Source: a virus (taxonomy: Duplodnaviria > Heunggongvirae > Uroviricota > Caudoviricetes). From it: a stretch of DNA of 15,845 bases. Location: positions 1-15,845 of IMG/VR virus record IMGVR_UViG_2609459791_000001. One strand, written 5' to 3'. The translations under genes were made by a program, and so were the position numbers. Shown here one piece after another: positions 3,966-12,687 of the stretch (positions are counted from its first letter, which is position 1; every line of letters starts with the position of its first letter). The notes beneath the pieces were generated by a model, which saw only the letters and a list, made by a program, of their open reading frames with translations, was not told the origin of the DNA and searched no databases.

Positions 3966-4172
<207 letters not shown>

Positions 4173-5499: not shown

Positions 5500-5601
5500 A
5501 TCCGTTGAAGCCTGCTTTTTTATACTAAGTTGGCATTATAAAAAAGCATTGCTTATCAATTTGTTGCAACGAACAGGTCACTATCAGTCAAAATAAAATC
5601 A
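5500..5601. other. attL: attL (B-O-P') of a lambda-type integrase; 15-bp core GCTTTTTTATACTAA at 5514-5528 followed by the P' arm
   Basis: Exact lambda att core sequence; sequence to the right (gttggcattataaaaaagcattgcttatcaatttgttgcaacgaacaggtcactatcagtcaaaataaaatcattatttgatttc) matches what I remember of the lambda P' arm with arm-type Int sites; int gene immediately adjacent. Confidence 0.9.
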
Positions 5602-9508: not shown

Positions 9509-9730
9509 TGTTTGAGTTTAATATGGCAGAACTTCTTCGCCACCGCTGGATGCGCCTGCGCTTATATCGTTTCCCCAGTTCTGTTTTGACCGATTACCGA
9601 ATACTGAGGAATTACGCCAAAACCCTGACAGGAGCAGGAGTATGAAGTCAGAGATAACAATCAACTAATACTGTTTTATTGATTTTTGCTTGTAATTGGC
9701 GTTCTGGTCTGATTTTTGTGGAGTAAGTTG

Positions 9731-10114
9731 ATGCGTGATATTCAGATGGTTCTTGAGCGTTGGGGAGCGTGGGCGGCTAATAATCATGAAGATGTGACCT
9801 GGTCGTCCATTGCCGCCGGTTTTAAGGGATTAATTACTTCAAAAGTAAAATCTCGCCCGCAATGTTGTGACGATGACGCTATGATCATTTGCGGGTGCAT
9901 GGCCCGTCTGAAAAAGAACAACAGCGATTTGCACGATTTATTAGTAGATTATTATGTAGTCGGTATGACATTCATGTCACTGGCAGGTAAGCATTGCTGC
10001 TCTGATGGTTATATCGGGAAAAGGTTACAGAAGGCTGAGGGCATAATTGAAGGGATGTTAATGGCATTAGATATCCGGTTAGAGATGGATATCGTTGTTA
10101 ATAACTCTAATTAA
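9731..10114 (+). CDS. Q: Late-gene antiterminator Q (phage 82 / DLP12 QuuD type)
   Basis: Track ORF starts at TTG 9716; ATG at 9731 gives 127 aa [26 protein letters not shown]... with Cys-rich zinc-binding region ([18 protein letters not shown]); position rusA-Q-lysis is canonical. Confidence 0.85.
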
Positions 10115-10127
10115 TACGCCAATTATT

Positions 10128-10292
10128 TACTAAAAGTTATTAAAAATGGGGCGTTGAAACGCCCCCAAAAATAAAGGGTAATATATAACAGAAGGTTTGT
10201 ATAGTTAGAAGCAAGGTTGTGCTTCTAAAGGAAGTGGCTTGAGGGAGCCACTTATATGTTGGGGAGGCAAAGCCTCCCACAACATATCTTTT
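10128..10292. terminator. Cluster of four stem-loops between convergent Q and porin genes (likely porin terminator(s) and Q-dependent late leader / tR-prime equivalents)
   Basis: Hairpins ggggcgttgaaacgcccc (10148-10165; U-run on minus strand), agaagcaaggttgtgcttct, gtggcttgagggagccac, and a long stem atatgttggggaggc-aaa-gcctcccacaacatat (about 10254-10290; followed by cttttag on plus strand). Confidence 0.5.
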
Positions 10293-10302
10293 AGTAATCA
10301 AA

Positions 10303-11385
10303 TTAGAACTGGTAAACCATACCTACAGCAACGATATCATCGGTAGCAACGCCAGATGCTTTCGTGAAATCGCTCTTATCAATCAGGTTGATTTTGTAGT
10401 CAACAAAAGTGGACATATTTTTGTTGAAGTAATAGGTTGCACCTACATCAACATATTCAACCAGGTCCTGATCACCCCAAACACCCAAGTCTTTTCCTTT
10501 AGAATGCAGGTAAGCAACGGATGGACGCAGGCCGAAGTCGAACTGATATTGTGCAACAGCTTCGAAGTTTTGTGCTTTGTTGGCAATATGGTTATTACCA
10601 AAAACAGTCATGTTCTGGGTTTCAGAATAGGTGGTGGCCAGATAGATGTTGTTCGCATCATATTTCAGACCAGCTGCCCATACTTCAGCATTTTGACCAG
10701 AAGCATTCAGACCGTTGTTACCGTAGATAACCTGATTATTAGTGCGATCAGATTTAGCATAGGTTGCACCCACGCCGAATCCTTCATACTCATAAGTAGT
10801 TGAGAAACCGAAACCATCGCCATTAGCTTCAGTTACTTCATTTCGGTCATTTTTGCCCTGATACTGAGCTGCAAAGTTCAGGCCATCAACCAGACCAAAG
10901 AAGTCGTTGTTACGATAAGTTGCAACACCTGTGGTGCGACCAGTCATGAATACATCTGTTTGGGTCCAGGTATCGCCACCGAATTCTGGCAGAACGTCAG
11001 TCCACGCACCGATGTCGTATGCTACACCGTAGTTACGGCCGTAATCGATTGAGCCGTAGTCACCGAATTTCAGGCCTGCAAATGCAAGACGGGTTTTGTC
11101 TTTGGAGGAACCTTGAGATTCAGCGCGGTTGCCTTTGAATTCATATTCCCACTGACCGAAACCAGTCAGTTGATCGTTGATTTGGGTTTCACCTTTGAAG
11201 CCAAGACGGGCATAAGTAGTATCACCATCATCTGCATCATTAGAGGAGAAGTAGTGCTTAGCATTAACTTTCCCGTACAGATCCAGCTTGTTACTGTCTT
11301 TATTATAAATTTCAGCTGCCTGAGCAGACATCGCCATCAGTACTGATGCAGCTACAGCAGAAATTGCCACTGTTAATTTTTTCAT
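10303..11385 (-). CDS. nmpC: Phage-encoded outer-membrane porin, OmpC/OmpF family (Lc / NmpC-like), apparently intact
   Basis: 360-aa ORF with signal peptide [23 protein letters not shown], porin-typical N-terminal AEIYNKD...KLDLYGK and C-terminal ...VAVGMVYQF ending in aromatic residue; located between Q and the lysis genes as in PA-2 and DLP12. Confidence 0.9.
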
Positions 11386-11974
11386 CGTGAGCCCTTTTTT
11401 TTGAACTATTATTAAAAAATGATGTCACTGCGCGATAAATATTCATCTAATCAATGTGATTATTTCAAGATGTAAGTTTTAGTTTCTCGTTTAATTTGTG
11501 AAGTAGATCTCTATTTTTATCTGAACTTTTTTCTATCGAATCCTATTCATGGCTCTTGGCTGAATAAAAATAAATCTATTAGCCAATTTATATTAATGGC
11601 TGTTATTTATAAGTGCTCTATAATTTGAAGGTTCAATTTAAATTGGCTAAAAATAACGCTGGAAATTATTTATTGGTTATTTGTTAAGATTTTCTTATGT
11701 ATTTGTGGTGGAGTTTTGAACACTCGGTAGCATTCTCATAAATATCATTCAGTGGTTTACGTACGTAAAAAATTGGTTATGCTGTTAAGAGTGGTTACTT
11801 CGTCACACAGCTTAAACCCGCCGTCGAGCTGGTTTTTCCATTTTTTGAGTCTCGATATTAGCTGATAACTCAATACCTGAGTTATTCACTGACTCCGAGT
11901 CTGTTACGTTTCTGCTTTTTTGCGATACGTTGTATTCCCTCAATTTACACCCGCTTTGTCTGCGAGGTGGGGTT
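11386..11974. promoter_or_regulatory. AT-rich 590-bp intergenic region: porin promoter/regulatory region and leader of lysis operon
   Basis: Long strongly AT-rich spacer directly upstream of the minus-strand porin start, with no ORF of 60 aa or more in the track; individual promoter elements not resolved. Confidence 0.3.
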
Positions 11975-12190
11975 ATGAAATCCATGGATAAGTTAACAAC
12001 GGGTGTCGCCTATGGCACCTCAGCAGGTAGTGCCGGTTACTGGTTTTTACAGCTGCTCGATAAAGTCACGCCCTCACAGTGGGCGGCAATTGGAGTGCTG
12101 GGTAGCCTGGTATTTGGCCTGCTGACGTACCTGACAAACCTTTATTTCAAGATTAAAGAAGATAAGCGCAAGGCTGCGAGAGGTGAATAA
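11975..12190 (+). CDS. S: Class II holin (pinholin), phage 21 S type, with dual start motif
   Basis: Track ORF from 11930; ATG at 11975 gives 71 aa [71 protein letters not shown], two TM segments and Met1/Met4 dual starts as in S21. Confidence 0.85.
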
Positions 12191-12687
12191 TGCCTCCATC
12201 ATTACGAAAAGCCGTTGCTGCTGCTATTGGTGGCGGAGCAATTGCTATAGCATCAGTGTTAATTACTGGCCCAAGTGGTAACGATGGTCTGGAAGGTGTC
12301 AGCTACATACCATACAAAGATATTGTTGGTGTATGGACTGTATGTCACGGGCATACAGGAAAAGACATCATGCTCGGTAAAACGTATACCAAAGCAGAAT
12401 GCAAAGCCCTCCTGAATAAAGACCTTGCCACGGTCGCCAGACAAATTAACCCGTACATCAAAGTCGATATACCGGAAACAATGCGCGGCGCTCTTTACTC
12501 ATTCGTTTACAACGTGGGTGCTGGCAATTTCAGAACATCGACGCTTCTTCGCAAAATAAACCAGGGCGATATCAAAGGCGCATGTGATCAGCTACGTCGC
12601 TGGACATATGCTGGCGGTAAGCAATGGAAAGGGCTGATGACTCGCCGTGAGATTGAGCGTGAAGTCTGTTTGTGGGGGCAGCAATGA
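12190..12687 (+). CDS. R: SAR endolysin (lysozyme, T4-lysozyme-like fold) R21/RrrD type
   Basis: 165 aa; start ATG overlaps holin stop (TAATG); N-terminal Gly/Ala-rich weakly hydrophobic SAR segment [20 protein letters not shown] followed by lysozyme domain. Confidence 0.9.

Follow-up and report, generated by a model that had tools for sequence, protein, structure and literature searches.

The window analysed in this work, a stretch of 15,845 nucleotides, matches the chromosome of E. coli strain 20AR0354 with 100% identity, and the annotation of that strain supplies the gene order used here. At the centre of the analysis is a porin gene on the minus strand (10303..11385). To its left lies the gene of the antiterminator Q (quuD; plus strand, 9731..10114, with an alternative start at 9716), assigned by annotation and by Pfam Phage_antitermQ, and to its right the holin gene essD (plus strand, 11975..12190), a holin of the P21 S type by annotation and by Pfam (P21 holin S) and the first gene of the lysis cassette. 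The element that carries these genes is flanked by the host genes ybhI, ybhJ and ybhC on the left and by ybhB and bioA on the right. Its left part comprises an integrase, an excisionase, a few pseudogenes, ninE, ninX, rusA, ylcG, quuD and the porin gene, and its right part essD, rrrD, Rz, rha, ybcV-like and ylcI-like genes, a truncated nohD, tail-fibre fragments and a diguanylate cyclase gene.

The left prophage end is marked by the lambda att core GCTTTTTTATACTAA (5514..5528, plus strand), an exact match where none is expected by chance, and is adjoined by genes for a lambda-type integrase with an arm-binding domain and for the excisionase. The element has no immunity, replication or morphogenesis (head and tail) genes, and its content and insertion site identify it as a defective lambdoid remnant of ~14.8 kb at lambda att, with ybhC and ybhB on either side. 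DLP12 was considered as the carrier and ruled out, since the element resides at lambda att with a lambda-type integrase and DLP12 at argU; the two elements have the Q-porin-lysis module in common. In strain HS30-1 the same 2.1 kb module, 100% identical, is found inside a complete-looking lambdoid prophage.

The porin and its relatives

The porin open reading frame (ORF) is complete, running from ATG to TAA over 360 codons, and residues 29-360 of its product match positions 1-337 of the 337 positions in Pfam PF00267 (Porin_1) with E=3.6e-152, a full-length match that argues against an ORF arising by chance. Codons 1-23 (11317..11385, minus strand) encode a signal peptide that is the same as the sig_peptide of the PA-2 record J02580. 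Cleavage is predicted after AQA, an AXA site of the Sec type, and the mature porin begins with AEIYNK. The loop-3 constriction motif is present as LPEFGGDT at residues 132-139 (PEFGG) and aligns with the motifs of OmpK37 and OmpC, as does the terminal Phe of the C-terminal VYQF with the terminal residues of the same two proteins. Porins with solved structures in the PDB (OmpK37, OmpC, OmpK36, PhoE and OmpF) align across the whole mature protein, with E values down to 2e-135, and this end-to-end alignment points to a 16-stranded, trimeric beta-barrel.

A tblastn search of the phage collection with the porin matched 42 records, each covering at least 80% of the protein. The free temperate phages ev099 and ev243 encode a 100% identical porin, PhiR70_1 one that is 99.4% identical, and a large group of phages including ev017 and 4A7 one with ~94% identity, and nmpC of P7 is 82% identical; the record of phage 434 holds a porin copy with IS5 after codon 346, as in K-12. 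For ev243, the identity of 100% extends to the Q-to-porin intergenic region. Both ev099 and ev243 are complete phage genomes, whereas the element in the window is devoid of immunity, replication, head and tail genes.

Among characterized porins, Lc of phage PA-2 (GenBank J02580), with 365 aa against 360 aa in the window, shows 90.4% protein identity by tblastn and 92% in the protein alignment, where NmpC of K-12 is likewise 92% identical. The first 98 residues of Lc, signal peptide included, are identical to those of the window porin, and residues 1-180 of both Lc and NmpC are nearly so. The lc gene occupies the same slot, from Q to the lysis genes, in the same orientation, although PA-2 is a viable phage and the carrier studied here a defective remnant. 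In DLP12 (qsr'), nmpC sits in the same quuD-porin-essD-rrrD module with near-identical flanks, but this K-12 copy is interrupted by IS5B and has a different loop allele, whereas the copy in the window is uninterrupted. Given these identities, we regard the window porin as a member of the known NmpC/Lc family of lambdoid-prophage porins.

The chromosomal porins OmpC, OmpF and PhoE of E. coli and OmpK37 of Klebsiella (PDB 6v78) share superfamily and fold with the window porin, as judged by full-length alignment. An orthologue of OmpC was considered and rejected: identity to K-12 OmpC is only 61%, the score against the NCBIfam OmpC subfamily model NF007841 is 515 bits (cut-off 484) against 752 for true OmpC, and the gene lies in a prophage and not beside micF. 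That the cut-off of this model is passed explains the RefSeq name 'ompC: porin OmpC', which in this instance is best read as a family label with no bearing on orthology.

The initial annotation had described an Lc-type phage porin, complete with signal peptide and C-terminal aromatic residue, encoded antisense between Q and the lysis genes and preceded by a long AT-rich stretch. That description holds in all its parts: the product has 360 aa with a 23-aa signal peptide and ends in VYQF, quuD (+), the porin gene (-) and essD (+) follow one another, GC content across 11400-11800 is 0.26-0.30, and identity, slot and orientation all agree with Lc/NmpC.

The 3′ untranslated region

Between the stop codon of the porin gene and the end of its predicted transcript lie 163 nt (10140..10302, minus strand) to which homology and folding assign three hairpins and a terminator. 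The intrinsic terminator, a hairpin GGGGCGTTTCAACGCCCC followed by ATTTTT (10148..10165, minus strand), was located by terminator scan and by folding, and is the predicted end of the porin/ipeX transcript. The 3′UTR as a whole folds with a minimum free energy of -58.5 kcal/mol (z=-7.6), and 0/200 shuffled sequences fold as well. Relative to DLP12 and PA-2 it carries single-base changes only (~96-97% identical), and column identity averages 96% over seven sources with differing porin alleles, including DLP12, PA-2 and four other phages. In the predicted fold, the substitutions specific to the window are confined to loops, linkers or an existing mismatch position; changes among the seven similar sources are few, and they either lie in loops or at mismatches or reduce the length of one stem, a variation too small for a covariation test. 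The stretch is found in 36 records of the phage collection, with the porin gene adjacent every time.

A scan of the whole window against Rfam returned no family for the 3′UTR; its only match in the window was a REP-type naRNA4 at 4045-4115. The recently reported prophage sRNA svsR proved unrelated, being located in cI and targeting lamB. Homology, fold and location instead identify the 163-nt 3′UTR as ipeX, the IpeX of DLP12 and PA-2 occupying the same position, from the porin mRNA 3′UTR to the terminator, with 167 nt against 163 nt here.

Lysogeny by PA-2 reportedly lowers OmpC by way of the ipeX part of the lc transcript, an effect that Castillo-Keller et al. are said to have described in 2006. 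In the literature ipeX is an RNA of 167 nt that arises from the phage porin promoter within the porin transcript, is then processed, and reduces OmpC and OmpF (PMC12197685, PMC10690425, PMC8065619, PMC5069750). This RNA of the porin 3′UTR is the documented route to the loss of porin-dependent phage receptors (PMC12197685, PMC8065619, PMC5069750). Against the interpretation favoured below counts that ipeX has no known base-pairing target site (PMC12197685, PMC10690425). By analogy with these systems, we infer that the ipeX of the window would repress OmpC and OmpF.

Upstream region and regulation

The upstream, putatively regulatory region of the porin gene (11386..11750, minus strand) is AT-rich, with a GC content of 0.26-0.30 over 11400-11800 compared to 0.40-0.50 within the porin gene, and it is ~96-97% identical to its PA-2 counterpart. 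Over the ~590 bp that separate the porin ATG from the holin start, identity to the region upstream of PA-2 lc amounts to 96-97%, and mean column identity of the porin upstream region to PA-2 and K-12 is 96%. DNA of 26-30% GC is of the kind silenced by H-NS, a consideration that also weighs against the favoured interpretation.

A putative proximal CRP site, ATAGAGATCTACTTCACAAAT (11494..11514, minus strand), is identical in sequence to the site annotated in PA-2 J02580 and lies 109-129 bp before the porin ATG. The distal CRP site annotated in the PA-2 record is present in identical sequence at 11790-11810. It falls within the initial transcribed region of the late promoter homologue described below and is kept in 933W, which has no porin, so that it may belong to late-promoter function rather than to porin control. 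A consensus promoter scan of 9600-12300 yielded no sigma-70 promoter for the porin and no late promoter, the sole two matches lying inside Q. The small ORFs of the AT-rich region are all short and unconvincing, and 'ORF1' of PA-2, an antisense frame at the 3′ end of lc, has no preserved counterpart of at least 50 aa in the window.

Published work on relatives of the gene offers several indications of how it might be controlled. The nmpC transcript of K-12 is 6.3-fold lower in a cya mutant, and nmpC forms part of a cAMP-dependent 'hunger' response in this strain (PMC4512719). Both nmpC paralogues of the uropathogenic E. coli (UPEC) strain CFT073 strongly favour 37 °C over 23 °C, in RNA and in protein (PMC12890032), and a paper cited in the same source links NmpC to heat resistance. 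According to a review, NmpC is found in the outer-membrane proteomes of 89% of UPEC isolates (PMC9609314). The nmpC of E. coli B, which is uninterrupted too, is termed 'quiescent' in a title cited in PMC3333887.

Position relative to the late promoter

The order Q-porin-holin is also found in K-12, PA-2, ev243, 4C10, mEp332, PhiR63_2 and ev099. QuuD itself is 78-81% identical to the Q proteins of 933W-type Stx phages and distantly related to Q21. The late promoter was sought directly after Q, where the DNA (10100-10310) has no similarity to the porin-less 933W-type phages. A homologue of the pR'-qut-terminator region of 933W is located beyond the porin gene, at 11756..11837 on the plus strand, with 76-77% identity to 933W 20665-20746 and aimed at the holin gene. 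Homology to 933W predicts a pR' -35 element TTTACG (11756-11761), a -10 element TATGCT (11778-11783) and a degraded terminator hairpin (11817-11832) with a T-run, all on the plus strand, the assignment of pR', qut and terminator following features that the 933W record labels 'putative'. The terminator hairpin is weak in the window, at -9.5 kcal/mol (z=+0.5) against -21.9 kcal/mol (z=-3.2) in 933W.

Homology between the Q proteins ends after LEMD (~10092), whereas Q of 933W runs ~25 residues further and overlaps its pR'. Because the homology to Q stops at this point and the pR' homologue lies past the porin gene, the porin cassette (~10092-11750) has the appearance of a discrete insert separating Q from its target promoter. 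A search for repeats flanking the cassette as insertion scars found nothing convincing, and a tRNA scan of the window found none of the tRNAs that occupy this slot in Stx phages. In Lambda_ev245 an antisense lipocalin gene fills the same slot after a related Q, which makes the slot a general cargo position.

The stx genes of 933W-type phages are also cargo placed between a Q of 78-81% identity and the lysis genes. The stx genes, however, follow pR' on the late strand and are co-transcribed upon induction, whereas the porin cassette precedes the pR' homologue and is on the opposite strand. Confined between Q and the pR' homologue, oppositely oriented and equipped with its own terminator, the cassette would stand outside the late operon and be unopposed by late transcription, an arrangement suited to expression in the lysogen.

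Mosaic structure and selection

Nucleotide identity to PA-2 is 97-100% from the holin start to ~10880, falls to 62-93% per 60-nt block from 10880 to the porin stop (with both PA-2 and K-12 in the comparison), and returns to 93-98% in the 3′UTR. The drop in identity and the rise in dS delimit a diverged 3′ half (10303..10880, minus strand) that, by position, encodes the surface-loop patches L4, L5, L6 and L8. Synonymous and non-synonymous divergence between the window porin and PA-2 lc were estimated by the method of Nei and Gojobori. Codons 1-175 give dS 0.06 and dN 0.005, and codons 176 to the end dS 1.03 and dN 0.09. Within the 3′ half, values outside the four variable patches are dS 0.80 and dN 0.023, corresponding to a dN/dS of ~0.03 in the barrel segments, while inside the patches dS is saturated and dN reaches 0.34.

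The substitutions and both indels relative to Lc cluster at alignment columns 182-190, 219-236, 268-272 and 340-352, and these four patches coincide with regions that are prone to indels between porins. On the basis of OmpF/OmpC topology, we take them to be the external loops L4, L5, L6 and L8. Strong purifying selection acts on the barrel parts of the protein, and the changes cluster in the surface loops. A dN/dS of ~0.03 maintained despite a dS of ~1 argues that the porin has been functional as a protein over evolutionary time, and loop-focused change is the pattern expected of a surface protein facing phages or immunity. The 3′ half itself is therefore an old allele, recombined between conserved, near-identical flanks.

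Continuity of the locus among E. coli genomes

The K-12 annotation gives nmpC as a pseudogene in two pieces, with IS5B inserted 58 bp short of the ORF end, a position that cuts off the porin promoter from ipeX. Promoter and ipeX are contiguous in the window, as they are in PA-2. A probe of 401 bp with the K-12 IS5 site at its centre (10160-10560) was used to survey 5426 complete E. coli genomes, and the locus was considered uninterrupted where one place covered at least 80% of the probe, a measure that gauges continuity at the IS5 site only. The probe matches 2532/5426 genomes, and the locus is uninterrupted at the K-12 IS5 site in 2210/5426 (~40%), that is, in 2210 of the 2532 genomes with the 3′ end of the gene. 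Partial probe matches, among the matches listed, come from the K-12 laboratory strains DH5a, J53 and C600 and from one mouse-passaged isolate. The window's own allele, at 99% identity or more, is represented by 278 records.

The uninterrupted state at the IS5 site is therefore the norm and K-12 the exception. The initial annotation was right that K-12 nmpC is disrupted by IS5, as the pseudogene split by IS5B attests, but it had presented the intact porin as notable by contrast with K-12, and with 2210 of 2532 genomes uninterrupted at the site this part falls away. It had also named the porin as probably the functional conversion gene of the element. An intact Lc/NmpC porin in a classical conversion slot accords with a role of that sort; the definite article is too strong, because the diguanylate cyclase gene, which lies outside the window, is other possible cargo of the same element.

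Discussion

The porin gene is intact, belongs by homology to the NmpC/Lc family and is under purifying selection; ipeX and the upstream region are conserved around it, and the cassette sits upstream of the pR' homologue. The explanation that we consider highly probable is that ~10092-11750 constitutes a self-contained NmpC/Lc porin cassette, in which one transcript would deliver two outputs, a replacement porin and ipeX, independently of late transcription. Transcription would start in the AT-rich upstream region and run as far as the terminator (10148-10165), which lies just short of Q. The resulting mRNA would encode a general-diffusion porin of the OmpC/OmpF/PhoE superfamily, whose 23-aa signal peptide would direct it to Sec for export and whose C-terminal Phe would serve its assembly into a beta-barrel, while ipeX, processed out of the porin transcript, would lower the synthesis of OmpC and OmpF. 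With the cassette on, the host porins, receptors for many phages, would be replaced by a phage porin with different loops, which would change the set of adsorbing phages and possibly permeability. By analogy with lc and nmpC, expression would depend on cAMP-CRP and be favoured at 37 °C; the cassette is probably activated by CRP and likely damped by H-NS.

That the porin is functional in the lysogen is likely, given the intact gene, the purifying selection on its product and published reports of NmpC protein in natural isolates (PMC9609314, PMC12890032). We further infer that the strain would express the porin, with an effect on OmpC and OmpF and exclusion of phages. One feature of the carrier speaks against this explanation: a remnant without tail genes is no longer in a position to let a phage benefit from self-exclusion. 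The 'quiescent' nmpC of E. coli B, the consensus scan that yielded no porin promoter, and a pR' assignment that follows 'putative' 933W features and comes with a degraded terminator hairpin also weigh against it.

The most serious alternative, which we hold possible though well short of probable, accepts that the cassette is expressed and places its value in physiology rather than in defence against phages, be it uptake during carbon hunger, permeability to antibiotics or bile, or adaptation to temperature. The membership of K-12 nmpC in the cAMP-dependent 'hunger' response (PMC4512719), the strong preference for 37 °C in a uropathogen (PMC12890032) and the link to heat resistance made in a paper cited there are all in keeping with such a role, as is the fact that the remnant makes no virions, so that exclusion would serve the host alone. 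However, the allele differences are concentrated in four surface-loop patches, as pressure from phages or immunity predicts and transport does not, and the porin comes physically linked to ipeX, by which the OmpC and OmpF receptors are removed. The physiological and anti-phage readings are compatible with each other.

It is less probable still, and in our view unlikely, that the porin is intact but silent, an undecayed part of a remnant whose AT-rich promoter is subject to H-NS-type silencing and which contributes nothing measurable. The upstream GC content of 26-30%, the outcome of the consensus scan, which gave no sigma-70 promoter, and an element stripped of immunity, replication and morphogenesis genes would all fit this account, together with the term 'quiescent' applied to E. 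coli B nmpC in a title cited in PMC3333887. Yet a barrel dN/dS of ~0.03 despite a dS of ~1 attests to long-term selection on the protein, and viable temperate phages carry the same protein. NmpC is, moreover, found in 89% of UPEC isolates (PMC9609314) and thermoregulated in RNA and protein in CFT073 (PMC12890032), and even in K-12 an nmpC transcript can be detected and depends on cAMP (PMC4512719).

That the Q-proximal segment 10115-10302 is conserved for late-gene control on the plus strand, and not as ipeX, is very improbable: the segment abuts Q, is found in phages only together with this Q type and has one hairpin (~10258-10290) followed by CTTTT on the plus strand, but nothing similar to it follows Q in the 933W-type phages, whose Q is 78-81% identical, the pR'-qut homologue sits at 11756-11810 instead, the only canonical terminator within it faces the minus strand, and published work maps ipeX to the porin 3′UTR (PMC12197685, PMC5069750).

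Within the favoured explanation of a self-contained porin cassette, the mosaic structure allows a more speculative proposal, which we put forward with little confidence. The cassette may act as a receptor-swap device in which the conserved 5′ half with the promoter, on one side, and ipeX, on the other, serve as recombination anchors between which diverged L4-L8 alleles are shuffled among prophages; ipeX would remove OmpC and OmpF, and the loop allele would decide which phages can or cannot use the replacement porin. Less likely than this shuffling of loop alleles is a sharing of control elements between the porin promoter region and the divergent pR', an arrangement that could couple the late genes to cAMP because the distal 'CRP site' sits in the initial transcribed region of pR'.

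The locus is an already known and very common prophage module, and the finding is real but ordinary; references cited in PMC8065619 place the Lc/NmpC porin in the literature since 1975 and ipeX since 2006. It carries little weight as a discovery; its consequences are practical. The 'ompC' labels that RefSeq attaches to genes of this kind can mislead inferences on porins and permeability, as in the prediction of carbapenem resistance, and K-12 is an atypical reference for the porin locus, because IS5 uncouples the promoter from ipeX in that strain. With its mosaic of loop alleles and its place upstream of the pR' homologue, the cassette would serve as a neat model for morons that are expressed in the lysogen, the contrasting case being stx.

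Apparent insertion of the porin cassette between Q and its target promoter

A homologue of the pR'-qut-terminator region of the Stx phage 933W was identified by homology on the plus strand of the window (11756-11837). It lies a short distance 5' of the holin gene, with 1.64 kb separating it from the antiterminator gene Q; insertion of the porin cassette thus appears to have taken place between Q and the promoter that Q targets. In the window, the hairpin of the homologous terminator is degraded. The edge of the cassette also coincides with a divergent Q C-terminus (10092-10114): whereas 933W Q (L009, the 933W locus, 640-714) continues for approximately 25 residues beyond LEMD, the Q of the window module ends differently. 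From this comparison, the C-terminal tail of Q appears to have been replaced through insertion of the porin cassette.

Porin upstream region and annotation

The AT-rich region upstream of the porin gene contains an inverted repeat with arms TTAGCCAATTTATATT (11579-11594) and AATTTAAATTGGCTAA (11635-11650), which are 94% complementary, are spaced 40 nt apart and could constitute a regulator binding site. On the minus strand, CTTACATCTTGAAATAATCA (11453-11472) presumably resembles the OmpR C1 box of ompC; in older genetics, nmpC/lc is reportedly OmpR-independent. PGAP labels the prophage porin (10303-11385) "ompC: porin OmpC" in the RefSeq annotation of records H1-H26, and some phage records term it OmpD. 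In the RefSeq entry for ev243, the annotated start of the porin coding sequence is an ATG inside the gene, and a "hypothetical protein" overlapping it is listed as well, although the full ORF is intact in that phage.

Related copies, cargo slot and chromosomal setting

The sequenced stock of phage 434 (OL657227.1, 43214-44254) carries IS5 in nmpC after codon 346. Because this lesion is identical to that of the K-12 prophage DLP12, it suggests that the 434 stock obtained its nmpC region from a K-12 host.

The prophage remnant is located at the lambda att site (5514-5528). In the chromosomal ybhJ-ybhC intergenic region, an Rfam naRNA4 (REP-type element) match on the plus strand (4045-4115; 60.7 bits, gathering score 59.5) is an ordinary REP sequence of the chromosome.

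In phage Lambda_ev245 (L006, 3050-3574), an antisense gene for the lipocalin Blc follows a related Q (87% identity), where the window has the porin; the two genes are different cargo of one common slot. The right end of the remnant, beyond the window (L002, 31166-34828), holds tail-fibre fragments; a further candidate cargo gene, for a sensor diguanylate cyclase, is located there too.
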